From Patescibacteria group bacterium (lineage in GTDB: Bacteria; Patescibacteriota; Microgenomatia; JAMCZE01): a stretch of DNA of 64,000 nucleotides. The stretch spans positions 20,160 to 84,159 of the forward strand of contig JAMCZE010000010.1 in NCBI GenBank assembly GCA_023485845.1. Reading direction: 5' to 3'. Every line of letters begins with the position of its first letter. The first letter of the stretch is position 1. Positions 3-61,425 of this stretch are shown piece by piece. A program made the translations under genes and the position numbers. The notes beneath the pieces are model-generated. The model saw only the letters and a list, made by a program, of their open reading frames with translations, searched no databases and was not told the origin of the DNA.

Positions 3-155
3 CCCAATGTCTATAAAGCGGCTGGCATTGACCCAAGAGGGTGGACCGGGTTTGCTTTCGGCATGGGCCTTTCCCGCCTGGCCCTTCTTAAAAACCAAAT
101 TGATGACTTACGGGTTTTAACCAACTCGGATTTGAGAATTCTTAAACAGTTCTAA
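3..155 (+). CDS. pheS: phenylalanine--tRNA ligase alpha subunit, C-terminal fragment (5' partial)
   Basis: Frame-3 translation ...[43 protein letters not shown] matches the conserved PheS C-terminus; pheT follows immediately downstream. Confidence 0.7.
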
Positions 156-250
156 TTCAAAACTCAAAAATCAAAATGCAAAATTGCAATTCAAAATTAA
201 TAATTTTAACTTGGACTTTTAACTTTTAAATTTTGATTTTTAAATTACTA
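153..250. repeat. AT-rich degenerate heptamer array (TCAAAAN units) in the pheS-pheT spacer; bases 153-197 are an exact 45-bp duplicate of 459-503
   Basis: Read directly: taattcaaaactcaaaaatcaaaatgcaaaattgcaattcaaaat occurs at 153-197 and again inside pheT; 205-250 nearly matches 52690-52735. Confidence 0.8.
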
Positions 251-252
251 TC

Positions 253-2220
253 ATGTTAATTCCATTAAGCTGGTTAAAAGAATACGTTGACATCAAAATC
301 CCGTTTAAGGATTTAGCGGAACGGTTGTCGGAAGTTGGCCTGACGGTCGAAACCTGGCACGAGCAGGACGGAGATATTATTTTTGACCCTGAGGTCACCC
401 CGAACCGACCGGATTGGATGAGCGTTTATGGGATTGCCAGGGAAATAGCCGCGGTCACTAATTCAAAACTCAAAAATCAAAATGCAAAATTGCAATTCAA
501 AATAAATAAATCTTTAAAAATTGATATTAAACAAAACTATGACTTAATCTCCCGGATGACGTCGGTAATCATCAAAGACGTCAAGGTGAAACAATCACCA
601 GAATGGCTGCAGAAGCGGATAAAACAAATCGGGTTACGACCGATTAATAATTTGGTGGATATCACCAACTATGTGTTGTGGGTTTATGGCAGTCCGTTGC
701 ATGTTTTTGATTATGACAAAATCCGCGGCCACCAGCTGATTGTGGAAAAATCGGCCGGCGGCGAAGCTTTCCGCAGTCTGGACGGCATTGATTATCATCT
801 GCCCAATGGCGCCATCATTATTAAAGATCTCGGCCGAATTGTCGATTTGCCACCGATTAAAGGCGGGCAGAACACGGCTGTCTCGACGGAAACGAAAACC
901 GTGTTGTTACACTCGGTGGTTTGCAATCCAATTCTTTCCCGGCGGGCATCCCAAGCCCTGGGGGTGCGCAGTGACTCGTCAGCCGTTTCCGAACGGGGAG
1001 TGGATCCAAACGGGACAGTGGCCGCCGTTGATCTTGCCCTGTCCTTAGTCTTAGAACTAGCCGGCGGGCAAGTGGCCAGTGAAATTATGGATCACAAAAC
1101 GCAAGAGTTTGCCCCCTGGACCGTGGAAATGTCTCATGACCGGCTGGAGAAAATCTTAGGGATCAAAATTTCTTCGCGGGAAGTTAAGGACATTCTAACT
1201 CGGCTGGGCTTAGAAGTGGCGGGGGAATATAAGGTGACGGTGCCAACCTTTCGGGACGACCTCCACATTGAAGAAGATTTGATCGAAGAGGTGGGGCGGA
1301 TCCATGGTTATAACAATTTCCCCAAAACTCTGCCGGCCGGGCCGGTGTCCACCGCCCCGGTGGCCTACGCCCGCGACTTTGATTTAGAATTTCGCGTCAA
1401 GAGTCTGCTTAAAGGCGACGGCTACAGCGAAATTTACACTTATTCGCTGGTGGGGGAAAGACAACTGGTTGATCTTGGCATTGATCCGGGCAAAACCCTG
1501 CGCGTGGACAACCCCATCTCCCGCGATTTTGAATATCTGCGGCCGCGGATGATCGGCAATCTTCTGGAAGCGATGAAACTTAACCAAGCAAATTTTTCCG
1601 ACATCCGCCTTTATGAATTAGGTAAACACTACACCGGACCGACGATTGGCAAAGCCAAAGAAGAGTATTGGCTTAGCGGCGCCCAGACTGGAGAGAAATT
1701 TTATGAAGTGAAGGGAATAATCGAGACACTGCTAATCCAATTTGGCGTGCCTTACGAAATTAAACCGGACAACACTTCTGCCCAGGGCCACCCGGGGCGC
1801 AGCGCGGTGATTTCATCCGGGGATAAACTTTTGGGCTATCTGGGAGAAATGCACCCGGCGCTGCTCGCGCGGTTTGGAATTAAGGGCCATGTCAGCGGCT
1901 TTACAATTAATTACGATACATTCACATCTCTGGTTAATTTAAATAAAAAATACCGCCCTATTTCCAAGTTTCCGGCGGTGGTGCAGGATGTGTCGTTAAT
2001 TATTCCAGAAAAAGTCCTTTATGGCGACGTGCTGGAAGCAATTTGGTCAACTAGCAAATTAATTGCCGACGTCCAGTTACTCGATAAACATGAGCAAAGC
2101 ACCACGTTGCGAATCACGTTTCAGGACACGACAAAAAATCTGACTGACAGAGAAGTTAACGAGCTTCGGGCAAAAATTTTAAAGAAATTAGCGGAATTAG
2201 GAGTTAAGAACAAGGACTAG
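253..2220 (+). CDS. pheT: phenylalanine--tRNA ligase beta subunit
   Basis: 655-aa ORF; the N-terminus MLIPLSWLKEYVDI... and overall organization are typical of PheT; it directly follows pheS. Confidence 0.85.
   Translation: MLIPLSWLKEYVDIKIPFKDLAERLSEVGLTVETWHEQDGDIIFDPEVTPNRPDWMSVYGIAREIAAVTNSKLKNQNAKLQFKINKSLKIDIKQNYDLISRMTSVIIKDVKVKQSPEWLQKRIKQIGLRPINNLVDITNYVLWVYGSPLHVFDYDKIRGHQLIVEKSAGGEAFRSLDGIDYHLPNGAIIIKDLGRIVDLPPIKGGQNTAVSTETKTVLLHSVVCNPILSRRASQALGVRSDSSAVSERGVDPNGTVAAVDLALSLVLELAGGQVASEIMDHKTQEFAPWTVEMSHDRLEKILGIKISSREVKDILTRLGLEVAGEYKVTVPTFRDDLHIEEDLIEEVGRIHGYNNFPKTLPAGPVSTAPVAYARDFDLEFRVKSLLKGDGYSEIYTYSLVGERQLVDLGIDPGKTLRVDNPISRDFEYLRPRMIGNLLEAMKLNQANFSDIRLYELGKHYTGPTIGKAKEEYWLSGAQTGEKFYEVKGIIETLLIQFGVPYEIKPDNTSAQGHPGRSAVISSGDKLLGYLGEMHPALLARFGIKGHVSGFTINYDTFTSLVNLNKKYRPISKFPAVVQDVSLIIPEKVLYGDVLEAIWSTSKLIADVQLLDKHEQSTTLRITFQDTTKNLTDREVNELRAKILKKLAELGVKNKD
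459..503. repeat. 45-bp exact copy of the upstream intergenic repeat, inserted in-frame in pheT (encodes [15 protein letters not shown])
   Basis: Identical string to 153-197; the translation is low-complexity K/N/Q-rich. Confidence 0.8.
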
Positions 2221-4777: not shown

Positions 4778-4799
4778 TCTAGTTTACCATATATTAACA

Positions 4800-5126
4800 A
4801 TGACCAAGAAACAGCAACCACCCAGCCTAGCCGATATCAGAAAATTATTCCAAGATAATAACAAAAGCCTTTTTAGTTTTATTGAGGAGCGGCTTAGGGC
4901 TAATGACCAAATCATTCTAGCGGCTTTCGACCGGGATATTCGATTGCTGGAAGGGAGACTAAATAGTTTAGAGACAAAAGTAGATAAGGGATTTGACGAA
5001 GTCAACAGGCGTTTTGACATCAACGACGACACTCATCAAGAAATCCTTCAAGTGGTCAGCGAGATGACGGACAAAAAAATTAAAGATCACGAGCGCCAAA
5101 AGCACATATTTTCGACTGTCAATTGA
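4800..5126 (+). CDS. small coiled-coil protein, paralog family member 1
   Basis: ATG at 4800 after the PBP start; shares the motif LE.KVDKGF.EVNRRFD with the ORF at 16442. Confidence 0.45.
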   Translation: MTKKQQPPSLADIRKLFQDNNKSLFSFIEERLRANDQIILAAFDRDIRLLEGRLNSLETKVDKGFDEVNRRFDINDDTHQEILQVVSEMTDKKIKDHERQKHIFSTVN

Positions 5127-5156: not shown

Positions 5157-5480
5157 ACAAGTTAATATTTAAAGGCTTTGATGGAGAAGCAGTAGAAACT
5201 TTAAGGTGACACCAGAGAAGAGGCGGTTGCTGCAAGACCTCTCGCACTTAAAGAATCGAATTACTCTCCGGAGCTGAAAGACTGAAATCACAGTAAGTTT
5301 TTCCGGGTAAGCCCGTGATAGCAGAAAAGCTGTGTCATTGAAAGATAGAGCAGTTTGAGGCTAATGGACGATCCCGCCTCAGCGGGATTTTTTAGTGCTT
5401 TAGTAAAGTAAGGTGGTACCGCGAGAAACCTCGCCCTTACCAATCGACCATGTTCATGGTTGGTGAGGGTGAGGTTTTTT
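5157..5480 (+). promoter_or_regulatory. T-box riboswitch leader (Tyr-specific inferred), with Stem III, antiterminator and intrinsic terminator
   Basis: T-box motif AAGGUGGUACCGCG at 5410-5423. Antiterminator: AAGG pairs with CCUU and GCGAG with CUCGC, flanking a UGGUACC bulge. A 13-bp terminator stem (5429-5441 with 5462-5474) is followed by T6 (5475-5480). Stem III hairpin cccgcctcagcggg at about 5372-5386. Candidate UAC specifier at 5262-5264. Confidence 0.7.
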
Positions 5481-5487
5481 GTGTTTT

Positions 5488-5574
5488 ACACGGGTGGCAG
5501 AGTGGTCAATTGCAACTCTCTGTAAAAGAGTCGCCCTAACAGGCTGCGAGGGTTCGAACCCCTCCCCGTGTACC
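5488..5574 (+). tRNA. tRNA-Tyr (anticodon GUA), long variable arm
   Basis: Hand-folded cloverleaf: 7-bp acceptor stem ACACGGG/CCCGTGT, D-arm with GG, anticodon stem ACTCT/AGAGT with loop CUGUAAA (GUA), a 16-nt variable arm, T-arm GAGGG-TTCGAAC-CCCTC, discriminator A, then CC (the terminal A of CCA is not encoded). Confidence 0.85.
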
Positions 5575-5587
5575 TATGAAGAAAGAT

Positions 5588-6505
5588 ATGGATACACTCA
5601 ATCATTCACAAACAATGAGCCACGAAGTGAAACGACTGTTTCCCGACACCAGGGAGCCAGAAAAGTTCGGTCAACTTTTTGGCATCACAGAACTGGGAAT
5701 GGGGCTAAGTTGCTCGCCGGAAACGATTAGGCGAGTCGGGTGGTGGTGGCTAGAGATAATGAAGTTAGGAATTAGCAATATGAAGACAAACGAAATAAAG
5801 CATGCCATTCGTAAAACCGCTTTGCTTGCCACCGAATCGGGCCAGTCCGTAGAATTTATTTCCACTCGCAGTCCCGATTTCATTCTTCATTTTACCGAGC
5901 ACCGTGAAGGACAACCAGAGCTTGGGCAGCGATCAATAGTGGCTCTCAATAAGCTTACCGAGATTAAACAAATATCAGAAAGATTTATACCAACCAAAGC
6001 AACGGTTTTTCTGGCCGATATTGCGCTGGCAAACGCTGATGATCCCCAGAACGGAATTCCAAGTAATTTCGCCGATGACTTATTAGATAGCAATTTGAAA
6101 GCGCTGCAATTGGCTTCTGCTAAAATTGACCCGTCGCTGGGCATCTCAAGACTGGGAGATATTGTCCACCCGTCCGGGAAGACCCGGAGAGACATTGTCG
6201 GGGTTGATGGGAATGGCAGTGCCTTCCGACAACTTACAGCCGATGCTTTTACGCATATTCGGGCGGTGGTCAAGGAAAGCTTGGAATTTCATCAAAAACT
6301 CGGTTGGTCTGAACGAGATGTTGAGGAACGAACAACGAAATTGGCAAAAGTTATGGCTACTGCTGGCCAAGCGTTTCATGCACAAAGGCCACGACCAATC
6401 ATGCTCTTTATGGAATCGTTTGTTAAAAGGGCTGCTTTTAATAACCTTCTAATTGACAGACGGGATCCACTTCCAATAATCTGCTTTAACGATCTGCGAC
6501 GATAG
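5588..6505 (+). CDS. hypothetical protein (no recognizable domain) located between tRNA-Tyr and tyrS
   Basis: 309-aa ORF in the tool frame; I chose the ATG at 5588, preceded by purine-rich GAAGAAAG, because the ATG at 5576 abuts the tRNA 3' end. Confidence 0.5.
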   Translation: MDTLNHSQTMSHEVKRLFPDTREPEKFGQLFGITELGMGLSCSPETIRRVGWWWLEIMKLGISNMKTNEIKHAIRKTALLATESGQSVEFISTRSPDFILHFTEHREGQPELGQRSIVALNKLTEIKQISERFIPTKATVFLADIALANADDPQNGIPSNFADDLLDSNLKALQLASAKIDPSLGISRLGDIVHPSGKTRRDIVGVDGNGSAFRQLTADAFTHIRAVVKESLEFHQKLGWSERDVEERTTKLAKVMATAGQAFHAQRPRPIMLFMESFVKRAAFNNLLIDRRDPLPIICFNDLRR

Positions 6506-6522
6506 CATATAATAGTGGTGTC

Positions 6523-7668
6523 ATGGATAAGATTGACGAATTGCTAGCCAGGGGGGTGGACAAAATTTATCCTTCAAAAGAGGCCCTGGAAAAGGTTCTG
6601 CGATCAGGGAAAAAACTTAGACTTTACCAAGGGTTTGATCCTACGGGGACCCAACTTCACATTGGTCATCTTGTTGGTTTCCGCAAATTACGACAATGGC
6701 AAGATCTTGGACACCATGTGATTTTTCTGATTGGTGACGGCACCGGCCAGGCCGGTGACCCTTCTGGCAAGAGAGGAGCCAGAGAAAAATTCATGGAGAG
6801 AGATGAATTACGGGCAAACGCCAAGGACTACCTTATGCAGGTTGCCAAGATCGTTAATTTCGAGGGATCTAATCCGGTGGAAATCTTATACAATAGCGAC
6901 TGGCTTAATGAGTTAAAATTGGTTGATATTCTTCACATCGCCCAGAATTTCTCCGTTCAACAATTGATCGAACGGGATATGTATCAGGAACGTCTCAAAA
7001 GGGGAGAGCAAATTAATTTACGGGAGTTCCTCTATCCGCTTCTTCAAGGCTATGACTCTGTCGCAATGGACGTTGACTTGGAGCAGGGGGGGACTGATCA
7101 AACCTTTAATATGTTGGCCGGGCGGACGCTGGTTAAAAATATGCTCGGAAAGGAAAAGTTTGTTATGACCACACCCTTGTTGACAGACGCTGAGGGAAAC
7201 AAAATTGGGAAAAGCGAAGGAAATGTTATTGGAGTAACTGACCCACCAAGCGAACTTTTTGCTAAAATTATGTCCCTAAAAGATAGTGCTATTATAAATT
7301 GCTTCACCTTAATTACTGCATTGCCTCTCAATAGTGTCGCGCAGAAAGAAAATCGGCTAAAAGATGGTGAGAACCCAATCAATCTTAAAAAAGAATTAGC
7401 CGCACAGATTGTTTCTGAAGTGCATTCGCCGGCGGCGGCGAAGAAGGCGCAGGAGGAATTTGAAAAGACGTTTCAGAAAAGGGAAGTGGCGGCGGATTTG
7501 ATTGAAGAGGTTTCGGCGGCGCCGGGAAAGATCACTGACCGGTTGGTGGAGGCGGGGATTGTGGCCAGCAAATCCGAGGCCAAACGGCTGGAAGACCAGG
7601 GGGCAATTGAAGAAATTGAACCAAATCTATATCGGATCGGAAAAAGGAAATTCATCAGATTCAAATGA
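6523..7668 (+). CDS. tyrS: tyrosine--tRNA ligase
   Basis: GFDPTGTQLHIGH (HIGH motif), KIGKS (KMSKS-type motif), C-terminal S4-like domain. Confidence 0.9.
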   Translation: MDKIDELLARGVDKIYPSKEALEKVLRSGKKLRLYQGFDPTGTQLHIGHLVGFRKLRQWQDLGHHVIFLIGDGTGQAGDPSGKRGAREKFMERDELRANAKDYLMQVAKIVNFEGSNPVEILYNSDWLNELKLVDILHIAQNFSVQQLIERDMYQERLKRGEQINLREFLYPLLQGYDSVAMDVDLEQGGTDQTFNMLAGRTLVKNMLGKEKFVMTTPLLTDAEGNKIGKSEGNVIGVTDPPSELFAKIMSLKDSAIINCFTLITALPLNSVAQKENRLKDGENPINLKKELAAQIVSEVHSPAAAKKAQEEFEKTFQKREVAADLIEEVSAAPGKITDRLVEAGIVASKSEAKRLEDQGAIEEIEPNLYRIGKRKFIRFK

Positions 7669-11247: not shown

Positions 11248-11481
11248 ATGGCGGTGAAATTAAGACTCACCAGAATCGGAAAAACCGGCAACGCCCAATA
11301 CCGGCTGATTGCGATTGATGAACACAAGCGGCGCGGCGGCCGGGCCATTGAAGTGCTTGGCTCTTACAACCCCCATCAGAAAGTTAAAAGTCAAAAGTTA
11401 AAAGTCAAAAGTGAAAGAATTAAATATTGGTTGTCGGTCGGGGCAAAACCTACCGAAACCGTTGCCCAGCTTCTCAAATGA
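11248..11481 (+). CDS. rpsP: 30S ribosomal protein S16
   Basis: MAVKLRLTRIGKTGNAQYRLIAIDEHKRRGGRAIEVLGSYNP; carries a heptamer-repeat insertion. Confidence 0.85.
   Translation: MAVKLRLTRIGKTGNAQYRLIAIDEHKRRGGRAIEVLGSYNPHQKVKSQKLKVKSERIKYWLSVGAKPTETVAQLLK
11384..11418. repeat. TTAAAAG/TCAAAAG heptamer array, in-frame in rpsP (QKVKSQKLKVKSE)
   Basis: Read directly. Confidence 0.8.
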
Positions 11482-20734: not shown

Positions 20735-21178
20735 TTATTGCGGACTCGCAAACACGGCTGATCCGCCACCTTCCTTATACACAACCACTGAGTATCCTGT
20801 CTTCACACTGGAATATGAATAACTCGGCAGAGTGCCGGCACCACATGGCCACCATTGTGAGGCGCTGAAGGCACCTTGGGTTGTAAAGGTCTTCTGACCT
20901 GTTCCACAACCTGGATCTACCATTGACGATAGATAATTCCCAGTTGTTAGAGAGACATACATATCAGAAAAATTACCCCCGGAATTCGGATAGCCATTAT
21001 TATCTCCGTTATATCTCTCTAAGGATGCACGCACCGCGTTGGCCATCTGTTCCCGCTGGGTGTCCCGAGCGGACTTCTGGGCGCTGGTGAGACCAAACAA
21101 GGAGATGGTTGCTAAAATCGCGATCACGGCGATCACGATCATAAGTTCAATCAATGTAAAACCTCTATTTCTTTTCAT
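20735..21178 (-). CDS. pilA: type IV pilin (major pilin candidate)
   Basis: MKRNRGFTLIELMIVIAVIAILA prepilin leader plus hydrophobic helix; 147 aa. Confidence 0.75.
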   Translation of the reverse strand: MKRNRGFTLIELMIVIAVIAILATISLFGLTSAQKSARDTQREQMANAVRASLERYNGDNNGYPNSGGNFSDMYVSLTTGNYLSSMVDPGCGTGQKTFTTQGAFSASQWWPCGAGTLPSYSYSSVKTGYSVVVYKEGGGSAVFASPQ

Positions 21179-21245: not shown

Positions 21246-22457
21246 CTATTTAATCACGTTCACCAGATTAAACATCGGTAGTAAAACGGCGATGGCCAGA
21301 CCGCCAACCGAGAGGCCCATCACCAGAATAATGATCGGTTCCATGGCGGAGGTCACGGTTTTAACCCGCCGCTCCGCCGCCTCCTGATAGAACTTGGCCA
21401 AGCGGGCCAGGCTTTGGTCTAAAGTGCCGGTTTGCTCACCAATGGCCGCCAGCTGAGCCATCATCAACGGGAATTGGGGATAACGGTGCAGCGTTTGGGA
21501 CAACGGCAACCCTTTTTCCACCGCTTTAGCGCAGGCTTCGATCCCAGAACGGAAATGGTCGTTAACCATCGTTGCTGCCACAATATTGAGGGCGTCCAAA
21601 ATAGCCACTCCGGAAGAAAGCAGGGTGGCAAGCGTCCGGTTAAGAATCGTTAATACCGTGTCGTTTTCCAGTGGACCGAAAATCGGCACCCGGTAGCGCA
21701 GATTATTAAGCCAATAGTCCGACACTTTATTGTTGCGTAAAATTCGGTAGCCAACGGCCAGCAGGGCAATGGCAGCCAACACCAACACCAGATAGTTTCG
21801 AATGATCATGGAGATGCCGATTAAAATTTTGGTCGGCAGCGGCAGCTCGGCGTTAAATTGAGAATAAATAGTCGAAATTTGGGGGATAATCGTTGTCACC
21901 ATAAAAGCCCCGATGCCCCCCATCGCCGTGACAATAATCGCCGGGTAAATGAGCGCCCCCCGAACTTTAGACTTAAACTCCAGATCGGCCTCCAGGGTGT
22001 CGGCAAAATCCTCCATCGTTTCGCCCACTTTTCCCGATGCCTCGCCGGCTTTCACCAGATTAACGTAAAGATTATTAAAGATCTCCGGGTAACGGCTCAT
22101 GGAGGCAGAGAGCGAGTCGCCGGACTGGATGTCGTTTTGGATCGAACGGATCACTTGCGAAAAATAGCTGCTGCCAAACTGGTTGGCCAAGTTGGCCAGG
22201 GCATCGGACAGCGGCAAACCGGTTTGGATCATGGTGGCTAACAATCGGGTGAAAACAGCCACATCCCGGGCGGAAACCTTATTGCCGGTTTTCGGAAACA
22301 AATTAGTTAGGGAAAACTCTTTTTTTTGGGTCAGGGAAACCACCACCAGACCCCGTTCCTGCAGAATCTTGATGGCGTGCTTTTCATCCAGGCTTTCAAT
22401 TGTGCCGGAAACTTTCTTGCCGGTTTTGTCAATAACTTTATATTGGAACTGTTTCAT
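21246..22457 (-). CDS. pilC: type IV pilus inner-membrane platform protein PilC (GspF family)
   Basis: 403 aa with the duplicated GspF domain architecture. Confidence 0.85.
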   Translation of the reverse strand: MKQFQYKVIDKTGKKVSGTIESLDEKHAIKILQERGLVVVSLTQKKEFSLTNLFPKTGNKVSARDVAVFTRLLATMIQTGLPLSDALANLANQFGSSYFSQVIRSIQNDIQSGDSLSASMSRYPEIFNNLYVNLVKAGEASGKVGETMEDFADTLEADLEFKSKVRGALIYPAIIVTAMGGIGAFMVTTIIPQISTIYSQFNAELPLPTKILIGISMIIRNYLVLVLAAIALLAVGYRILRNNKVSDYWLNNLRYRVPIFGPLENDTVLTILNRTLATLLSSGVAILDALNIVAATMVNDHFRSGIEACAKAVEKGLPLSQTLHRYPQFPLMMAQLAAIGEQTGTLDQSLARLAKFYQEAAERRVKTVTSAMEPIIILVMGLSVGGLAIAVLLPMFNLVNVIK

Positions 22458-23506
22458 CCTTTTTGCACCAAGGAGCGCATTTCCTGCGCATTAGTCGCAT
22501 AGGCGGCCGCCATGTCAAAATCAATTTTGCCGGTGGCCACTAACCGGGCCAGGGCCAGATCGGCCGTCATCATCCCGGCGTCACCGGAGGTTTGAACAAT
22601 GTTGTCAATAAGATGGGTTTTGCCTTCCCGAATCACGGAGCGCACCGCCGGGGTGGCAGTTAAAATTTCCACCGCCGGCACCCGGCCGCCACCAATGGCG
22701 GGCAGCAACCGTTGGGAAATGATCGCCTCTAGCGAGTTGGACAATTGGAGGCGCACCTGAGCCTGCTGATTATCCGGAAAGACATCGACAATCCGGTCCA
22801 CCGTTTGGGCCGCTGAATTGGTGTGCAAAGTGGCAAAAACCAAGTGGCCGGTCTCAGCGATGGTGAGGGCGGCGGCAATGGTTTCGTAGTCGCGCATTTC
22901 TCCCACCAGCACCACGTTGGGATCTTCCCGAAGCGCCGCCCGCAGCGCTTGGCCCCAAGAATAGGTGTCAGAACCAATTTCCCGCTGAGAGACCAAGCCT
23001 TTGGCCGGGCTATAAAGATATTCTATCGGATCCTCAATGGTGAGAATGTGGCCGCCGCGTTTTTGATTAATTTCCTCAATAATCGCGGCGATGGTGGTTG
23101 ATTTTCCGTGCCCGGTCGGCCCGGTCACCAAAACAAACCCTTGGGGGAGGGTGGCAAAATTATGACAAATCGAAGGGAGGTTTAGCTCTTCCACTGATTT
23201 AATCCGCAGGGGAATAAGCCGAAAAGCCACCGAGGGAAGCCCTTTTTGAAAGTAGGCATTGACCCGAAATCGGCCCTCGCCAAAACTGTAACCAAAATCC
23301 AATTCGTGATTGGCCTTAAAAGTTTCCTGCTGCTCCGACGACAACAAAGGGGAAAGCAGGGCAGTGATCTGCTGCCCGGAAAGCGTGGGATAATCCACAT
23401 TGGAGAGTTGGCCGTCAACCCGAATCACCGGCCCATAGCCAGCCACCAGATGCAGATCGGACGCCTTCCGATTAATCGTCAGCTGCAATAAATCTTGGAT
23501 AACCAT
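22454..23506 (-). CDS. pilT: twitching motility ATPase PilT
   Basis: GPTGHGKSTT Walker A plus the Asp/His boxes. The tool ORF starts at a TTG at 23515; I prefer the ATG at 23506. Confidence 0.85.
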   Translation of the reverse strand: MVIQDLLQLTINRKASDLHLVAGYGPVIRVDGQLSNVDYPTLSGQQITALLSPLLSSEQQETFKANHELDFGYSFGEGRFRVNAYFQKGLPSVAFRLIPLRIKSVEELNLPSICHNFATLPQGFVLVTGPTGHGKSTTIAAIIEEINQKRGGHILTIEDPIEYLYSPAKGLVSQREIGSDTYSWGQALRAALREDPNVVLVGEMRDYETIAAALTIAETGHLVFATLHTNSAAQTVDRIVDVFPDNQQAQVRLQLSNSLEAIISQRLLPAIGGGRVPAVEILTATPAVRSVIREGKTHLIDNIVQTSGDAGMMTADLALARLVATGKIDFDMAAAYATNAQEMRSLVQKG

Positions 23507-23578
23507 AAAAAACAATTTAAAATTTACAATTTGAAATTTGAACTAAAACTTTTCAATTTGAAATATTTAATTTTCAAT
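23507..23578. repeat. ATTTGAA-type heptamer array, the left arm of a hairpin element flanking the four-helix-bundle ORF
   Basis: aaatttacaatttgaaatttgaactaaaa here is the inverse complement of a segment in 23943-23992. Confidence 0.7.
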
Positions 23579-23942
23579 CAGATTTTGTTGAATAAGCAAT
23601 TTTCCCAAATATCAGCACGAATTCCTGGGCCTCCTGATAAAGCTGTCGACACTCACCTTTAAGCTTCTCGTCATCGAGCGAGCCGCCAATCAACCTCAAC
23701 CAGTATACCGTTTCTTTTGCCTCTTTCTTACTAATAAAAATTTTATTTTGAAAATCCTTTTTACTTGAGGCTCCGTTTGCCTCCCGATAGTTGGCCCCGA
23801 TACTCGTTCCCGATCTGACCGCCTGATCAACTAATGGAATAGTTATCGAATTTTTAAGAATTCTCTTCAAAAACTCAATTAATTTCTCCGAAAATCTCGC
23901 GGTTCTTTCTTCCAAGTCGTAATTGTTTGATGATTGAGCCAT
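23574..23942 (-). CDS. four-helix-bundle protein (the family found inside 23S rRNA intervening sequences)
   Basis: 122 aa; ...VRSGTSIGANYREA... and ...KEAKETVYWLRL... are hallmarks of this family. Confidence 0.7.
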   Translation of the reverse strand: MAQSSNNYDLEERTARFSEKLIEFLKRILKNSITIPLVDQAVRSGTSIGANYREANGASSKKDFQNKIFISKKEAKETVYWLRLIGGSLDDEKLKGECRQLYQEAQEFVLIFGKIAYSTKSD

Positions 23943-23992
23943 TTCAAATTTTATATTTAGTTCAAATTGTAAATTTCAAATTTCAAATTAAT
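23943..23992. repeat. TTCAAAT-type heptamer array (right arm, inverse of the left arm)
   Basis: Read directly. Confidence 0.7.
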
Positions 23993-25688
23993 CCTGGGCG
24001 ACTCTAAGGACTTCCTCAATTGTGGTGACGCCTTCCAGGGCTTTTAGGTAACCATCTTGTTTCATGGTGATCATCCCTTCTTCCACTGCTAGCTTGGCCA
24101 CCGAGCCGGCGTCGGCATGGGACAAAATCAGTTTAGCAATTTTGTCCGACACCGGCAAAACTTCAAAAATTCCCACCCGGCCTAAAAATCCGGAATCGGC
24201 GCATTCCTTGCAGCCTTTGCCCCGATAGAGAGTGACTTTGTCCCCGTGATACATGTCTCCCAAAACGTTTTTAATATCTGCCGTCATAATTTCCGGTGGG
24301 GAATATTCTTCCTTGCAGTGCGGGCAAATCTTGCGCAAAATCCGTTGGCCCACCACGGCATTTAAAGAACTGGCTAAAAGAAACGGTTCGGCGCCCAAAT
24401 CCAAAAGGCGGGGAATGGCCCCGGCACTGTCGCTAGTGTGCAGGGTGGAAAAAACGAGATGGCCAGTGAGGGCCGCCTGAATAGCTAAATCGGTGGTTTC
24501 CTTGTCCCGGATTTCTCCCACCAGAATCACGTTGGGGTCCTGGCGCAAAAAAGAACGCAGTCCGGTGGCAAAGGTCAGCCCCGCCGCCGGATTAATCTGA
24601 ACCTGGTTGACGCCAGCGATTTGGTATTCCACCGGGTCCTCGATTGTCACGGTGTTCACCTTGGTGGAATTAATTTTAGACAGGACCGCGTAAAGGGTGG
24701 TGGTTTTACCCGACCCGGTCGGGCCGCAAACAATAATAATCCCGTGGGGGCGCAAAATGGAAATCTCCAAATTTTTCAGGGCCACACCGCGAAGGCCTAA
24801 CTCATCCAGCGTCGGCACGCCGCCGCTTTTGGGCAGAAGGCGCAAGACCACTTTCTCGCCATAAACCGTGGGCAAGGTGGACACCCGGACGTCCACTTCA
24901 CTGTCACCGGATTTATAGTTAAACCGGCCGTCCTGCGGCATCCGTCGTTCGTCAATTTTTAAATTAGACATGATTTTAATTCGGGAAACCAGAGCGTCAT
25001 GAATCCGCTTAGGCAATTCCAGCTTCTCGTAAAGAATGCCGTCGATCCGGTAGCGCACCCGGGTGTGGTCTTCCAGCGGCTCAATGTGAATGTCCGAGGC
25101 CCGGGACTTAATGGCAAAATCAAAAAGGGACGAGGCAATTTTGGCCACCGGGGCGTCGCGGATAATGTCCTCTTTGGCCGGACTACTGGTTGTCAATGAT
25201 GATTCGGGCTCTTTTTTTTCTTCTTCCAGGGCAGCTGACACCTCGGTGGTGAGCACCTGGCTGTATTTATCAGTGATGGCATTTTTAATCTCTGCGGCCG
25301 GGGCAATAAAGGGCCGCACCTTTTTGCCGGTCTTTTTTTCTAAAAAGGAGATAACCACCAAATCCAGCGGGTCGGCCATCGCCACTGAGAGACTATCAGC
25401 CGTCTTATCCAGCTCGAACGGGAGCACGTTATAGCGCTCCGCCACCGGCCGGGTGACCAAATTCAAAACTTCCAGCAAAATCACTTTATTAGCCAGATCG
25501 ATATAGGGGATGCCGTAAAGCTTGGACCGGGCCTGGGCAATCTGCATATCGGTGGCAAAGCCATGGTCAGAGAGAATCTGATCCACGGTTTTGCCGGAGT
25601 TCACCGCTTCCAGCTTCACTAAACCAAGCTGATCCGCCGTGATCACTTTGTCGGCTGCCAGAATGTCTTCCAGGGCAGTGGCATTCAT
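23988..25688 (-). CDS. pilB: type IV pilus assembly ATPase PilB (GspE family)
   Basis: 566 aa; GPTGSGKTTT Walker A, CxxC tetracysteine motif, N-terminal GspII domain. Confidence 0.85.
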   Translation of the reverse strand: MNATALEDILAADKVITADQLGLVKLEAVNSGKTVDQILSDHGFATDMQIAQARSKLYGIPYIDLANKVILLEVLNLVTRPVAERYNVLPFELDKTADSLSVAMADPLDLVVISFLEKKTGKKVRPFIAPAAEIKNAITDKYSQVLTTEVSAALEEEKKEPESSLTTSSPAKEDIIRDAPVAKIASSLFDFAIKSRASDIHIEPLEDHTRVRYRIDGILYEKLELPKRIHDALVSRIKIMSNLKIDERRMPQDGRFNYKSGDSEVDVRVSTLPTVYGEKVVLRLLPKSGGVPTLDELGLRGVALKNLEISILRPHGIIIVCGPTGSGKTTTLYAVLSKINSTKVNTVTIEDPVEYQIAGVNQVQINPAAGLTFATGLRSFLRQDPNVILVGEIRDKETTDLAIQAALTGHLVFSTLHTSDSAGAIPRLLDLGAEPFLLASSLNAVVGQRILRKICPHCKEEYSPPEIMTADIKNVLGDMYHGDKVTLYRGKGCKECADSGFLGRVGIFEVLPVSDKIAKLILSHADAGSVAKLAVEEGMITMKQDGYLKALEGVTTIEEVLRVAQD

Positions 25689-27164: not shown

Positions 27165-27461
27165 ATGTCCAAAAATCTGCAGCAAATAAAAAAAACCATT
27201 GGCGATAACATTTCTCCGCTGCGAGACCAATTTGGTGTCCAAAAATTGGGAGTCTTCGGCTCCTTCACCCGCAATGAGCAAACTGACCTTAGCGACGTCG
27301 ACATTCTCGTAGAATTTTCCCGGACCCCAAGCCTGTTTAGATTCATTGATTTGGAACAAACTTTAACGAGCTTGGTTGGGCGGAAAGTTGATCTAGTGAC
27401 CAAAAATGCGCTAAAGCCTTCAATTAAAAATGACATCTTAAACGAGGTTGTTTATGTCTAA
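27165..27461 (+). CDS. mntA: MntA-type minimal nucleotidyltransferase (antitoxin of the HepT/MntA pair)
   Basis: GVFGSFTRNEQTDLSDVDILVEF (GS...DxD) motif; 8-nt overlap with the downstream HEPN gene. Confidence 0.75.
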   Translation: MSKNLQQIKKTIGDNISPLRDQFGVQKLGVFGSFTRNEQTDLSDVDILVEFSRTPSLFRFIDLEQTLTSLVGRKVDLVTKNALKPSIKNDILNEVVYV

Positions 27462-27807
27462 ACGAGACCCAAAACTTTACCTTCAGGATATTTCCGACGC
27501 TATTTCGAAAATTGAGGCCTTTACATCGGGCGTGTCCTACGATAACTTCGTTCGCGACGAAGAAAAAATGGATGCTATCATTCGAAACCTGGAGGTAATT
27601 GGCGAAGCAGCTAAAAATGTCCCCCCGGAAATAAGAGAAAAATATCCGGAAATTCCTTGGGAAAAAATGACCAGCACTAGGAATAAAGTTCTGCACGAGT
27701 ATTTTGGCATTGACATGGAGATTCTTTGGGAGACAATTCAAGAGGACATCCCATCCCTAAAAGTAAAACTTGATAACATTCCCGGATTAGCCAGGAAACT
27801 AATTTAA
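27454..27807 (+). CDS. hepT: HepT (DUF86 HEPN) toxin
   Basis: Rx4HxY motif RNKVLHEY near the C-terminus. Confidence 0.75.
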   Translation: MSKRDPKLYLQDISDAISKIEAFTSGVSYDNFVRDEEKMDAIIRNLEVIGEAAKNVPPEIREKYPEIPWEKMTSTRNKVLHEYFGIDMEILWETIQEDIPSLKVKLDNIPGLARKLI

Positions 27808-33420: not shown

Positions 33421-33819
33421 ATGGACCAGAAAACAGTCGTAAAGAATTGGCTTGATGGTGCAAATGAGGCTTGGAAGGCAATATCGAAATTTGCCGGTTC
33501 CAAAGAGGGACATCTTGCCTTGTTTTTTCTTCATTTATCATTAGAAAAAACCCTAAAAGGGTTGTATTTAGCGAAATTTAATGAACCGGCGCCTTTTACA
33601 CACGATCTGTTACAATTGACCGACAAGATTGGACTTAAAACAACGGACGTTGAGAAGAAACAATTAGCAGAAATTTCCACTTTTAACATTGCTGCCAGAT
33701 ATGACGATTACAAGTATCGCCTCCAAGAAAGGGCGACTTTTGAATTCGTCAAAGAGTGGACGGCAATCGGTGAAAATTTGAGAAACAAGTTTATAAAAGA
33801 AATGGAAAAATATGAATGA
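33421..33819 (+). CDS. HEPN-domain protein (PF05168-like)
   Basis: HLSLEKTLKGLYLAK...FTHDLLQL...IAARY pattern; 8-nt overlap with the downstream NTase gene. Confidence 0.7.
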   Translation: MDQKTVVKNWLDGANEAWKAISKFAGSKEGHLALFFLHLSLEKTLKGLYLAKFNEPAPFTHDLLQLTDKIGLKTTDVEKKQLAEISTFNIAARYDDYKYRLQERATFEFVKEWTAIGENLRNKFIKEMEKYE

Positions 33820-52667: not shown

Positions 52668-52735
52668 CTAATTTAAAATTAAAAATTTAAACTTGGACTT
52701 TTAACTTTTAAATTTTGACTTTTGAATTAGTCTTG
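52668..52735. repeat. AT-rich heptamer array; bases 52690-52735 nearly match 205-250; it also supplies the last codons of ruvC
   Basis: acttggacttttaacttttaaattttga(t/c)ttt is shared with the pheS-pheT spacer. Confidence 0.75.
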
Positions 52736-59694: not shown

Positions 59695-60357
59695 TTATTG
59701 TAGCCCATCCAGAACTTTTCGCAAATCGACCGGAAGAGGGCTGTCGAATTTTAGGATTTCGCCGGTTTGGGGGTGAGCAATTTCCAGATGGGTGGCATGG
59801 AGAAAGAGGCGCGGGCAAAACCTTTTGTCCGCCTGAAGGTTTTTCCGGCCGCCGTAGATGGGGTCAGCCACAATGGGATAACCGAGATATTTCAGGTGGA
59901 CTCTAATTTGATGCGTCCGACCCGTGTGGGGGATTAATTCCAACAATGAAAAATTTGAAATTTGAAATTTGAAATTTGAAATTGTTTTGTAATCCGTCGT
60001 GGCTTCACGGCCACCGGGAAACACCCCAAAATGCATTCGGTTAAACGGGCTTCGGGCAATCGGGGCATTGATGCTTCCCTGCTGTGGGCTGACTTTTCCA
60101 TGAACCAGCGCCAGATATTTCTTGACAGTCGTCCGGCTTTTAAACTGGGCCTGGAGATTTTCCAGCGCCACCGGAGTCTTAGCGATAATTAATAGGCCCG
60201 AGGTGTCTTTATCCAGCCGGTGAACAATAAACTTGCCGGCGGCCCAATCTTCCATGGTTTCCGTCCCCGCCGCCGTCTCCGACTTGTTGACCACCAACCC
60301 CGAGGGCTTATCAACAACCAACAAATAGTCATCCTCAAAAATTACCTTGATATCCAT
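59695..60357 (-). CDS. RluA-family pseudouridine synthase
   Basis: HRLDKDTSGLLIIAKT catalytic Asp motif; carries an ATTTGAA repeat insertion. Confidence 0.8.
   Translation of the reverse strand: MDIKVIFEDDYLLVVDKPSGLVVNKSETAAGTETMEDWAAGKFIVHRLDKDTSGLLIIAKTPVALENLQAQFKSRTTVKKYLALVHGKVSPQQGSINAPIARSPFNRMHFGVFPGGREATTDYKTISNFKFQISNFSLLELIPHTGRTHQIRVHLKYLGYPIVADPIYGGRKNLQADKRFCPRLFLHATHLEIAHPQTGEILKFDSPLPVDLRKVLDGLQ
59950..59984. repeat. ATTTGAA heptamer x5, in-frame in the rluA-like gene
   Basis: Read directly. Confidence 0.8.
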
Positions 60358-60436
60358 AATTAATTTGAAATTTACAATTTAAAATTTGAATTGATTGAAA
60401 CATTTAGTTCAAATTTCGAATTTCAAATTGAAAATT
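60358..60436. repeat. palindromic heptamer element (ATTTGAA arm + TTCAAAT arm), a cargo-less counterpart of the element at 23507-23992
   Basis: aatttgaaatttacaatttaaaatttgaa...ttagttcaaatttcgaatttcaaattgaaaatt. Confidence 0.65.
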
Positions 60437-60470: not shown

Positions 60471-60830
60471 TTACTTCTCCCGTTTCTTTTCACAGGTCAA
60501 ACACAGTGTGGCCGTTGGCATGGCCGCCAGTCGATCCGTGTCAATCATTTTGCCGCAAGACTCGCAGATGCCATATTTGCCGACCTTAATCTTGGTCATC
60601 GCCTTGCGGGTTTGCACCAGCATCAGATCTAATTGCTTGCGCAGGGCTTCTGTTCGTTCGTGGCCCGCTTTATTCTGGGCATCGGAATCTTCCGCCGCCC
60701 GATCCAACAGTCGGGATTTGTCCTCAAAAGGATCCTCCTTCTTCAGTTTTGCCATGTGACTCTCCAAGTCTTCCCTTCTTGTTTCCAAATGCTTATTAAT
60801 TTGTCTTAAAAGATCTTTTGGGAATTGCAT
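60471..60830 (-). CDS. DksA/TraR-family C4 zinc-finger protein
   Basis: C-terminal CESCGKMI...CLTCE plus an N-terminal coiled coil. Confidence 0.65.
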   Translation of the reverse strand: MQFPKDLLRQINKHLETRREDLESHMAKLKKEDPFEDKSRLLDRAAEDSDAQNKAGHERTEALRKQLDLMLVQTRKAMTKIKVGKYGICESCGKMIDTDRLAAMPTATLCLTCEKKREK

Positions 60831-61425
60831 AAAGCAATAACTTAAATAACCGCCAATAGCGAGCAATCAGAATTATCAAAATCACCGCTGCCGGCAACCA
60901 CATTAAAAGGGATGATAATTGAAAAATCAAGTAGCCAAGAATAAATAGGCCATAACGGCGCGAGAAATCAGCCAAAAACACATTGTGGCGCAGCTGTCGG
61001 GCCAAAAAGAACATTAGAACCGTTAAAAGTGCCGCCACCGCGGACAGGGAGTAGTTTTGTGTTCCCAAAAAACCCAGTGCCAAAACCGGGAAGCTGGCCA
61101 GACCAAAGATATCCAACATTAACAGCCAATCAAGACCAAAAGAAATTGAGGCAAGGATGGTGGCTATCCCCGCCGCGGCCACAAATGGCAGCAGTTCCCA
61201 ACCGGGATATTTGACAACTAGAATTAACCGGGACAAGTCGTTCGAGAAAATCCCCCAATGAAGATAAATGTAGCCGGCCCGGGCGGCAATTAGACCCAGC
61301 ATTGTTGCCAAAAGCAGCGTGTCCAACACCTGCTCTTGGGCCAAACCACGCGTTCTAGCCTGGTTCCACACCAGAAAAGTGAAAACAAGAAACGAAATTA
61401 CTAGTGTTAAGCCAATTGGGACCAT
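60796..61425 (-). CDS. Lgt-like (prolipoprotein diacylglyceryl transferase homolog) membrane protein, divergent
   Basis: ATMLGLIAARAGYIY and GLFILGYLIFQ resemble the Lgt G-R-x-G-Y and GYG-FR regions, but the protein is short. Confidence 0.4.
   Translation of the reverse strand: MVPIGLTLVISFLVFTFLVWNQARTRGLAQEQVLDTLLLATMLGLIAARAGYIYLHWGIFSNDLSRLILVVKYPGWELLPFVAAAGIATILASISFGLDWLLMLDIFGLASFPVLALGFLGTQNYSLSAVAALLTVLMFFLARQLRHNVFLADFSRRYGLFILGYLIFQLSSLLMWLPAAVILIILIARYWRLFKLLLYAIPKRSFKTN

Follow-up and report, generated by a model that had tools for sequence, protein, structure and literature searches.

Intervening sequences (IVSs) that encode the S23p protein, of the type found in Coxiella, Leptospira, Brucella and Xanthomonas, lie within helix 9, 25 or 45 of 23S rRNA. 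The IVS of Coxiella burnetii is 428-444 nt long and is closed by a 28-bp stem of inverted repeats, a substrate for RNase III in vitro; heptamers (GACAGAT), variable in number, stand just upstream of its S23p open reading frame (ORF) (PMC4990558). As relayed by that paper, Ralph and McClelland (1993) regarded the IVS as a mobile element whose ORF serves mobility. We describe here an S23p-type IVS element that lies outside rRNA and has relatives resembling miniature inverted-repeat transposable elements (MITEs). It was found in a 64,000-nt stretch of contig JAMCZE010000010.1 (positions 20,160 to 84,159, forward strand) of a Patescibacteria group bacterium (GenBank assembly GCA_023485845.1), hereafter the window, numbered from its first letter. 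The element carries a gene for a four-helix-bundle (4HB) protein between inverted arrays of 3-5 heptamers, and we put at roughly 60% the probability that it is a copy of a selfish IVS-type hairpin cassette inserted into a formerly tight pilB-pilT junction.

The site is a type IV pilus operon on the minus strand of the window, made up of a PilB-like gene, the 122-aa ORF of the element, a PilT-like gene, PilC and a pilin. The element and the two genes that border it are laid out as follows.

23988..25688, minus strand: PilB-like T2SSE ATPase, the upstream host gene (PF00437, E 6e-127, plus an MshEN domain)
23507..23987, minus strand: the whole inserted unit, 481 nt, filling the space from the pilB stop to the pilT start (a junction of 1-7 nt in relatives)
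23956..23989, minus strand: 5′ arm, in the sense of the ORF two AATTTGA units, then AATTTAC, AATTTGA and ACTAAA (inverted repeat I1)
23943..23955, minus strand: short A/T-rich leader from the 5′ arm to the ATG, read from the sequence
23574..23942, minus strand: 4HB gene, 122 aa, PF05635 / TIGR02436 (profile matches, AlphaFold2 model and selection)
23548..23573, minus strand: 3′ sub-terminal heptamer units from the stop codon to the 3′ arm (direct-repeat families D1 and D2)
23514..23547, minus strand: 3′ arm, reverse complement of the 5′ arm (23514-23535 matches the 22-mer with 1 mismatch)
22454..23506, minus strand: PilT-like T2SSE ATPase of 350 aa, the host gene downstream, starting with the ATG at 23506 (profile match)

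PilT homologues at 70-76% identity were traced to their contigs for the spacing between pilB and pilT; the PilT of the window is itself 100% identical to a 350-aa protein (P0121). In three lineages (L133-135, L130 and L131/132, L-numbers being the loci compared) the gap from the pilB stop to the pilT start is only 1, 2 or 7 nt, against 481 nt here, and the L133 junction reads caggatTAAgATG. The pilB-pilT unit is therefore an insertion and not an ordinary conserved gene of the locus. Both host genes are intact, because the unit lies exactly between stop and start codon. A sequence-only reading of this DNA, made without database searches, had placed the ORF between pilT and pilB and taken it for the cargo of a small mobile hairpin; both neighbours are T2SSE ATPases by profile, and the tight junctions in L130-L135 leave no room for a gene conserved at the locus. 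The closest PilT relative (L128/L129) has 134 nt at this place, directly after the pilB TAA (L128 2926-3059), in the form of a different, GC-richer heptamer palindrome (CAGTTTT/CGGTTGT ... AACTGAA/GACAGAA; fold z = -5.5). The junction has thus been struck twice independently, and junctions of this type may be a preferred target. A second pair of filled and empty sites is provided by L070, with a 188-nt element, and L064, with a tight TAAtttttATG. The base composition of the window unit is 33.5% GC (arms 13%, ORF 39.8%), compared with 52.6% and 54.5% in the flanking genes; the 64-kb window has 48.6%.

The assignment of the ORF to the 23S-IVS-type 4HB family, made in the sequence-only reading from the letters, is borne out by two profiles: PF05635 (23S rRNA-intervening sequence protein; E 2.5e-14, 53.8 bits, cut-off 33.8) and TIGR02436 (four helix bundle protein; E 9.8e-19, 67.6 bits, cut-off 24). 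An AlphaFold2 model of the monomer, with an alignment of 31 homologues as input, has pLDDT 92.7 and helices at residues 10-26, 34-56, 61-88 and 92-120. Its best matches in the PDB by Foldseek are the S23p-family structures 2rld (TM 0.74-0.83) and 2gsc (TM up to 0.78). The 2rld entry holds five chains, and S23p and Avd are described as pentameric rings (PMC4990558, citing Lin 2006). From the family motif GxxRxxxSxxxNxxE (PMC3936711) the window protein has R43, S47, N51 and E54, within QAVRSGTSIGANYREA; its first position is Q40, and this glutamine is invariant across a 30-sequence cross-phylum alignment. Homologues are numerous (4630 matches at E<1e-5). Close ones are 65-83% identical across lineages of the candidate phyla radiation (CPR), against 76% for the best PilT relative; the exact protein occurs only on contigs of the same Patescibacteria metagenome-assembled genome (MAG) (L001, L002). 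The ORF evolves under purifying selection (dN/dS 0.04-0.14, median 0.08), and we judge the protein functional on that ground. It has no match in PADLOC or PHROGs, and its assignment to a defence or phage family was rejected.

After the S23p structures, Foldseek ranks Avd of diversity-generating retroelements (DGRs; 8ube_D and 4dwl_E, TM 0.58-0.72). Avd is a pentameric, nucleic-acid-binding ring of the same four-helix-bundle superfamily that acts as an RNA-bound cofactor of the DGR reverse transcriptase, and DGRs are abundant in CPR genomes. The Pfam family under which Avd has been discussed is PF05635 (PMC10053308). These likenesses suggest a route by RNA, in which the excised hairpin RNA and an Avd-like pentamer would recruit a reverse transcriptase encoded elsewhere and be copied back into DNA, the tandem heptamers being a by-product of repeated short-template copying. 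The closest structures to the window protein are nonetheless 2rld and 2gsc, not Avd; no reverse transcriptase (RVT domain) lies within 10 kb of the unit or beside the other inspected copies, and neither template-repeat/variable-repeat pairs nor an A-to-N pattern is found. Entirely speculative and drawn solely from fold similarity, this route seems to us very improbable.

The anatomy of the unit is that of a hairpin built from heptamers. Its 5′ arm shares 2 nt with the pilB stop codon and contains the exact 22-mer AATTTGAAATTTACAATTTGAA at 23961-23982; the same arm sequence stands 5′ of the 4HB genes in L003, L006 and L007. The 3′ arm ends 7 nt short of the pilT ATG (23506). Both arms consist of tandem 7-nt units (AATTTGA, AATTTAC). 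The sequence-only reading had called them inverse complements. The inverted heptamer arrangement stands, but the complementarity is imperfect: 85% over the 34 nt of 23514-23547 and 23956-23989 and 95% over a 22-nt core, the arms being offset from each other by the register of one heptamer. In the predicted fold of the sense RNA (23500-24000; -126.1 kcal/mol, z = -4.0) they pair as the outermost stem, and the units at 23548-23573 pair with 23943-23953. No Shine-Dalgarno sequence is present in the leader at 23943-23955. On the minus strand the unit has no recognisable sigma70-like promoter and no intrinsic terminator; a 4HB gene with its own promoter or terminator was considered and rejected. 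Another candidate role, that of the heptamers as frame-independent translation stops, was rejected as a general rule, since all three frames are closed by only 14 of the 81 arrays on the 5′ side and no frame by 16.

The tie to rRNA IVSs is closer than the sequence-only reading had claimed. Window-type units (~470-480 nt) and the Coxiella IVS (428-444 nt) are of similar size, share the protein family, enclose the ORF in a stem (34-nt arms in the window unit, 28 bp in Coxiella), have tandem heptamers of strain-variable number by the ORF start and have a weak or absent Shine-Dalgarno sequence (PMC4990558). ORFs of the 23S_rRNA_IVP kind have been reported in insertions of both 16S and 23S genes of CPR bacteria (PMC11270868). 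The two differ in location, the window unit lying at an mRNA operon junction; in the state of the ORF, which is under strong purifying selection in the window-type family and in decay in Coxiella; and in the numerous ORF-less derivatives of the window-type family, a feature unlike the S23p-ORF IVSs. Rfam finds no rRNA in the window, and the unit does not lie inside a 23S helix, as an IVS in the strict sense does. Arms of the AATTTGA type inside an rRNA gene were also sought and rejected: among ~220 loci an rRNA operon is present only in L083, with a 22-mer remnant in the 23S-5S spacer. In that Patescibacteria operon (L083 2102-6136) the 23S gene measures 3735 nt against 2925 for the model and has an inserted LAGLIDADG-type ORF (4398-4853); the degenerate AATTTGA-type arm in the spacer is at 5951-5972.

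The arms form the conserved termini of a family with many copies, in agreement with the earlier suggestion of a mobile hairpin, with or without the ORF, at multiple sites. In the window alone AATTTGAAATTTACAATTTGAA occurs seven times at <=3 mismatches, against 0 in 100 shuffles. Homologous 4HB genes have unrelated neighbours: the one in L003 follows a giant surface protein, L004/5 has it flanked by Laminin_G_3 proteins, and in L006/7 two copies within 0.9 kb stand upstream of TraC-like genes. Each has the common ends 5′ AATTTGAAATTTACAATTTGAA ... TTCAAATTGTAAATTTCAAATT 3′. A scan of one genome per species placed the exact 22-mer in >120 genome blocks among the matches listed, mostly in Patescibacteria lineages; a single MAG can have at least 12 (CAWIDW01) or at least 14 (CALRFZ01) such blocks. 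The spacing of facing arms is bimodal, at ~70-120 nt and 386-446 nt. The long class (units of ~470 nt) bears the 4HB gene, and the short class (~125-140 nt; 113-165 nt in the sample) is a full palindrome; in sampled blocks 39 units lack the ORF and 10 bear it. Within one MAG the short units join the long unit's 5′ leader, up to the position of the ATG, to its post-stop 3′ trailer. Judged by this sequence structure, the short units relate to the long unit as a MITE does to a full-length element.

Arms are identical between units whose ORFs have only 37-45% identity at third codon positions, and the two L006 copies have identical arms at a dS of 1.08. With the ORFs near synonymous saturation, the arm sequence itself must therefore be constrained, beyond mere complementarity. 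The number of heptamers varies; L006 and L007, otherwise identical, are one unit apart.

Terminal inverted repeats conserved far above synonymous sites, ORF-less copies in excess, presence or absence at orthologous sites, many copies per genome, insertions into tight junctions between genes and the arrays that lie within coding sequences (CDSs) would also fit a MITE-like DNA transposon, in which an unlinked transposase acts on the 22-nt inverted ends and moves short and long units alike, the 4HB gene being a passenger that benefits element or host. A passenger would not be expected to belong to the same protein family in every flavour of heptamer and every phylum, as is found here, and the full-length form has no cognate transposase: its sole ORF is the 4HB protein, without a transposase domain, and no transposase gene was seen beside any unit. 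Neither a target-site duplication nor a set of near-identical copies was seen. We consider a transposon of this kind quite unlikely.

Three observations on these loci stand apart. Some ORF-less elements (L032, L071, L072, L114 and L119) have a GC-rich mini-hairpin of ~24 nt (e.g. CCGCGCGCCTGCGGGCGCGCGG) nested at variable positions, which looks like a second, smaller repeat inserted into the first. At L053 1-700 a 4HB unit of the AATTTGA type is enclosed by an array of a different kind and has the 25-mer CAATTACCGATTTACAATCAATTTT to its left and right, the product either of a nested insertion or of a long duplication. Solo copies or short intergenic arrays of the exact 22-mer are also present (L009, L024, L034, L058, L063, L069, L077, L115, L122 and L125) in MAGs whose bin labels, as given, are Bacteroidales, Chitinophagales, Omnitrophota, Nitrospira, Terriglobia, Ignavibacteria and Thermodesulfovibrionia; some of these loci have 53-57% GC, and no 4HB gene was detected near them.

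For the wider family we searched plasmids by tblastn (30 records, mostly Nostocales; 12 regions inspected) and metagenomes with the cross-phylum alignment (80 further loci, with 91 ORFs in those loci as controls). Cross-phylum claims rest on plasmids of cultured strains (Cyanobacteria, Bacteroidota, Spirochaetota and Chloroflexota). Some taxonomic labels of MAGs look unreliable (for example ‘uncultured Gammaproteobacteria’ or ‘Saccharibacteria’ from co-assembly bins) and were not used for them.

In 10 of the 12 plasmid regions the 4HB gene points the same way as the genes on either side and sits tightly within an operon; overall, 106 of 116 neighbouring genes share the orientation of their 4HB gene. 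It lies between helicase-type and methyltransferase genes, or their equivalents, in Dolichospermum, Planktothrix, Chlorohelix and Gloeocapsa; the other sites are csx2/cas1, RND adaptor/permease and FabH/peptidase. Heptamer arrays particular to the lineage flank these genes and are inverted in most. They read (AATTCGT)4 ... (ACGAATT)4 in Nostoc flagelliforme, with a second copy in the same strain flanked by (AATTCAA)4 ... (TTTTGAA)4; AATCCCC/AATCGTA vs TACGATT/TGGGATT in Planktothrix; ACCAGTG vs (CACTGGT)13 in Euhalothece; TTTTAGA/TCTAAAA in Gloeocapsa; GGAAAGN/CTCTCCG in Treponema; and TAACTGA-like units in Chondrinema. The arrays of Bernardetia look direct, not inverted, and Pseudanabaena has 35-nt tandem units. 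Around the metagenome 4HB genes the best 21-nt 7-periodicity is 0.71 on both sides (controls 0.48), and the median inverted-repeat score is 16, compared with 7 for the controls. Most arms have 3-5 heptamer units, and several flavours, each with its own 4HB gene, can stand together on single contigs (L118, L150). The anatomy of a gene within inverted heptamer arrays holds for the 4HB family across phyla and in the Coxiella 23S IVS. At L194 3938-4291, a divergent 4HB gene (E 3e-10) has inverted arrays of an 8-nt unit (AGGCTGGA / CCCAGCTT).

When 135 consensus heptamers from the arms were put into register, positions 1-3 were A, A and T in 132, 127 and 130 of them, and position 4 was T in 97; positions 5-7 were variable. 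This AAT(T)NNN consensus holds 4.38 bits of information, compared with 2.35 +/- 0.13 for shuffled units.

Arms of 13% GC made of simple heptamer repeats pair easily, and the palindrome at the pheS-pheT junction of the window folds (137-271) no better than shuffles (z only -0.26). A self-complementary, A/T-rich, low-complexity spacer that chances to lie beside an unrelated small gene is nevertheless a negligible prospect: seven matches are found in the window where none is expected, the exact 22-mer recurs in the >120 listed blocks, and an inverted-repeat score >=14 is reached by 56% of 4HB flanks and 0% of control ORFs. We exclude chance on these three grounds.

In our literature search, which was not exhaustive, no paper was found that links the 4HB family to heptamer arrays generally or describes the ORF-less derivatives, and the occurrence of PF05635 genes in inverted AAT(T)NNN arrays across phyla appears to be an undescribed regularity. 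Two of the plasmid cassettes sit in cas operons, between csx2 and cas1 in Pseudanabaena (L139) and antisense between cas2 and cas1 in Anabaena (L147). The 23S_rRNA_IVP genes inside cas loci have been interpreted as CRISPR-associated (PMC3936711, PMC10910872); this listing probably reflects 4HB cassettes that happen to sit there.

We infer the mobility of the cassette and the role of its protein from the observations above. Read-through from the host operon would supply the transcript of the cassette, and the two arms would pair in it as a long A/U-rich stem of ~34 bp. RNase III, by analogy with rRNA IVSs, may cut this stem; the cut would set free a monocistronic 4HB transcript and separate the pilB mRNA from that of pilT, with neither gene destroyed. 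The 4HB protein, presumably a pentamer, may recognise the AAT(T)NNN arrays of its own element, with roughly one subunit per heptamer, and by this putative binding it could help the element to persist or spread. Copies without the ORF would then be deletion derivatives reliant on the 4HB protein in trans. A model of a ring that reads an array is attractive because the AAT core is invariant, the arms have 3-5 units and the solved members of the family form pentameric rings.

A bolder version, which we hold tentatively and think more doubtful than the insertion of a selfish cassette, is that PF05635 pentamers in general are the cognate binders of AAT(T)NNN arrays, and that gene and inverted arrays together make up a class of mobile elements, so far unrecognised, that hitchhike on operons across phyla and have MITE-like derivatives without the ORF. 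If so, the S23p 23S IVSs, the short tandemly repeated repetitive (STRR) and TAACTGA repeats, the Geobacter heptanucleotides and the 23S_rRNA_IVP genes of cas operons would be one system, which would rely for its mobility or maintenance on a ring protein that is not an enzyme instead of a classical transposase.

Several results weigh against the selfish-cassette explanation. The S23p protein of Coxiella is apparently not made (PMC4990558). Among 61 elements, arm mismatches of the G:U type and the A:C type are equally frequent on the sense strand (50 vs 49); with no sense-strand G:U bias, RNA pairing is not singled out as the selected property, and RNA-specific selection on the arms was rejected as a candidate. 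The ORF-less hairpin at 60358-60436 in the window has its better fold on the plus strand (z -3.15), the transcribed minus strand giving z -1.6; this is a small correction to the sequence-only reading. Two of the 12 plasmid copies run antisense to the genes beside them, one in Euhalothece and one between cas2 and cas1 in Anabaena. Identity among the ORF-less copies of a single genome is only 62-93%, with none above 93%, and thus gives no sign of recent bursts. No vector is evident, since the 22-mer is absent from IMG/VR viral contigs; with just two weak tblastn matches in a phage collection, a phage vector was rejected. No target-site duplication is definable at pilB-pilT or L070/L064, where the genomes, at only 70-84% identity, are too divergent for base-by-base alignment of the junctions. 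Finally, no transposase or reverse transcriptase is found among the genes within 10 kb of the unit, and the other inspected 4HB copies have no such gene adjacent.

Known palindromes and heptamers offer further comparison. Correia/NEMIS elements of Neisseria, ERIC/IRU of enterobacteria and REP/REPIN are multi-copy palindromes of ~100-160 nt that stand at gene junctions and are co-transcribed; Correia and ERIC hairpins are cut by RNase III as RNA or affect mRNA stability. The window family has no sequence relationship to any of these, its arms are made of tandem heptamers, no TA duplication is seen, and its full-length form codes for a four-helix bundle and not for a RAYT or other known transposase. 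STRR repeats are known from heterocystous cyanobacteria. TAACTGA repeats occur in Beggiatoaceae, Cyanobacteria and Bacteroidetes, where a repeat-binding protein has been speculated to be a mobile entity (PMC4679880), and heptanucleotide elements occur in Geobacter (PMC2700814). All these resemble the arrays described here in having 2-6 tandem 7-nt units at gene junctions, often directly upstream of start codons and sometimes inside genes, with a patchy distribution across phyla that suggests horizontal spread. The window units AATTTGA/AATTTAC differ from those families’ TAACTGA, CCCCAGT, TTGGTCA and CAACAGT; arrays of the STRR/TAACTGA kind do flank 4HB genes on Nostoc, Planktothrix, Euhalothece and Chondrinema plasmids, the units being TAACTGA- or STRR-like in the last two. 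No paper found ties these repeats to PF05635 genes or to IVSs, and we do not claim that all STRR/TAACTGA-kind arrays derive from 4HB cassettes.

For the TAACTGA heptamers translational regulation has been proposed (MacGregor 2015, PMC4679880), and the Geobacter elements were annotated as regulator sites (PMC2700814). The 4HB protein might likewise be an RNA-binding post-transcriptional regulator and the junction arrays its operators, together a regulon, arisen or copied in place, with the pilB-pilT unit autoregulated. The arrays do stand exactly at co-directional gene junctions, abutting start codons, their copies are old and diverged, and the protein is under strong purifying selection. A resident regulator is hard to reconcile with a unit that is missing from the orthologous junction of relatives and is foreign in base composition, with 4HB genes in unrelated neighbourhoods in every genome examined, with ORF-less units that retain the long unit's 5′ leader and 3′ trailer as deletion derivatives would, or with several flavours and their own 4HB genes on single contigs (L118, L150). 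We rate resident regulation as unlikely, and note that it is compatible with one part of the selfish-cassette explanation, the binding of heptamers by the protein.

The ‘four helix bundle protein’ family, thousands of genes and none with known function, gains a concrete genomic identity as the cargo of a hairpin cassette. The IVS puzzle, 30 years old, is carried from rRNA to ordinary operons, where insertions, empty sites and ORF-less derivatives can be compared. The family is also tied to tandem heptamers that were described separately, without mechanism, in cyanobacteria, giant sulfur bacteria, Bacteroidetes and Geobacter; this link suggests a testable hypothesis, that a pentameric ring reads 3-5 heptamers with an invariant AAT core. 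Two cautions apply to annotation: 4HB genes should not be assumed to be functional partners of the cas, restriction-modification, efflux or pilus operons that host them, nor heptamer arrays to be CRISPR-like or regulatory features. In Patescibacteria the arrays identify a major repeat family that breaks assemblies and enters coding sequences.

The window holds further arrays of the AATTTGA type and of a second flavour, listed here with their neighbours and the rest of the pilus operon.

137..252: palindrome of the second heptamer flavour (AAAACTC.../TTTTAAC...), pheS-pheT junction
459..505, plus strand: 45-nt stretch identical to 154-199, placed in a variable linker of the pheT CDS
11384..11420, plus strand: heptamer array (AAAGTTA AAAGTCA ...) inside the rpsP (S16) CDS, encoding KVKSQKLKVKSE
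20735..21178, minus strand: pilin
21246..22457, minus strand: PilC
52668..52730: palindrome of the second flavour, RuvC / DUF5656 junction (z -3.05)
59695..60357, minus strand: RluA-type gene beside the ORF-less palindrome
59951..59985: tandem (AAATTTG)x5 of the AATTTGA-type family, inside the RluA-type CDS, encoding ISNFKFQISNFS
60358..60436: ORF-less palindrome of the same heptamer family as the pilB-pilT unit, between the DksA/TraR and RluA-type genes
60471..60866, minus strand: DksA/TraR zinc-finger gene beside the ORF-less palindrome

The sequence-only reading had pointed to a cargo-less palindromic copy of the arms at 60358-60436, and this copy is real: its 36-nt arms (60362-60397 and 60401-60436) are 75% complementary around a 3-nt loop. 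The second flavour, with units AAAACTC/AAAAGTC and TTTTAAC/TTTTGAC, is also found on the flanks of a divergent 4HB gene from a Daviesbacteria genome (L021); in the window its palindrome at 52668-52730 has a 29-mer in common with 207-235. The arrays inside the pheT, rpsP and RluA-type CDSs are single-arm and in frame, and in each a low-complexity peptide replaces a variable segment with a net change of 0-4 aa. The RluA-type peptide ISNFKFQISNFS is 4 aa longer than in PDB homologues and the rpsP peptide KVKSQKLKVKSE 2 aa longer than in homologues; the pheT-internal copy is identical over 45 nt to the intergenic one 300 nt upstream. Rickettsia palindromic elements likewise sit in frame in tolerant surface or linker segments, here those of RluA-type, S16 and PheT proteins, but they differ in sequence and host, and the in-CDS copies of the window are single-arm arrays and not whole palindromes.

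Two features of the window are unconnected with the arrays. A T-box leader (5169-5441, 108.7 bits) is followed by tRNA-Tyr (5488-5574), a 309-aa ORF (5576-6505) and a class-Ib aminoacyl-tRNA synthetase (6523-7668); it is unusual for a tRNA gene to separate a T-box from its synthetase. Near the pilus operon lie an MNT/HepT (nucleotidyltransferase/HEPN) toxin-antitoxin pair and a further HEPN gene (27165-27807, 33421-33819).

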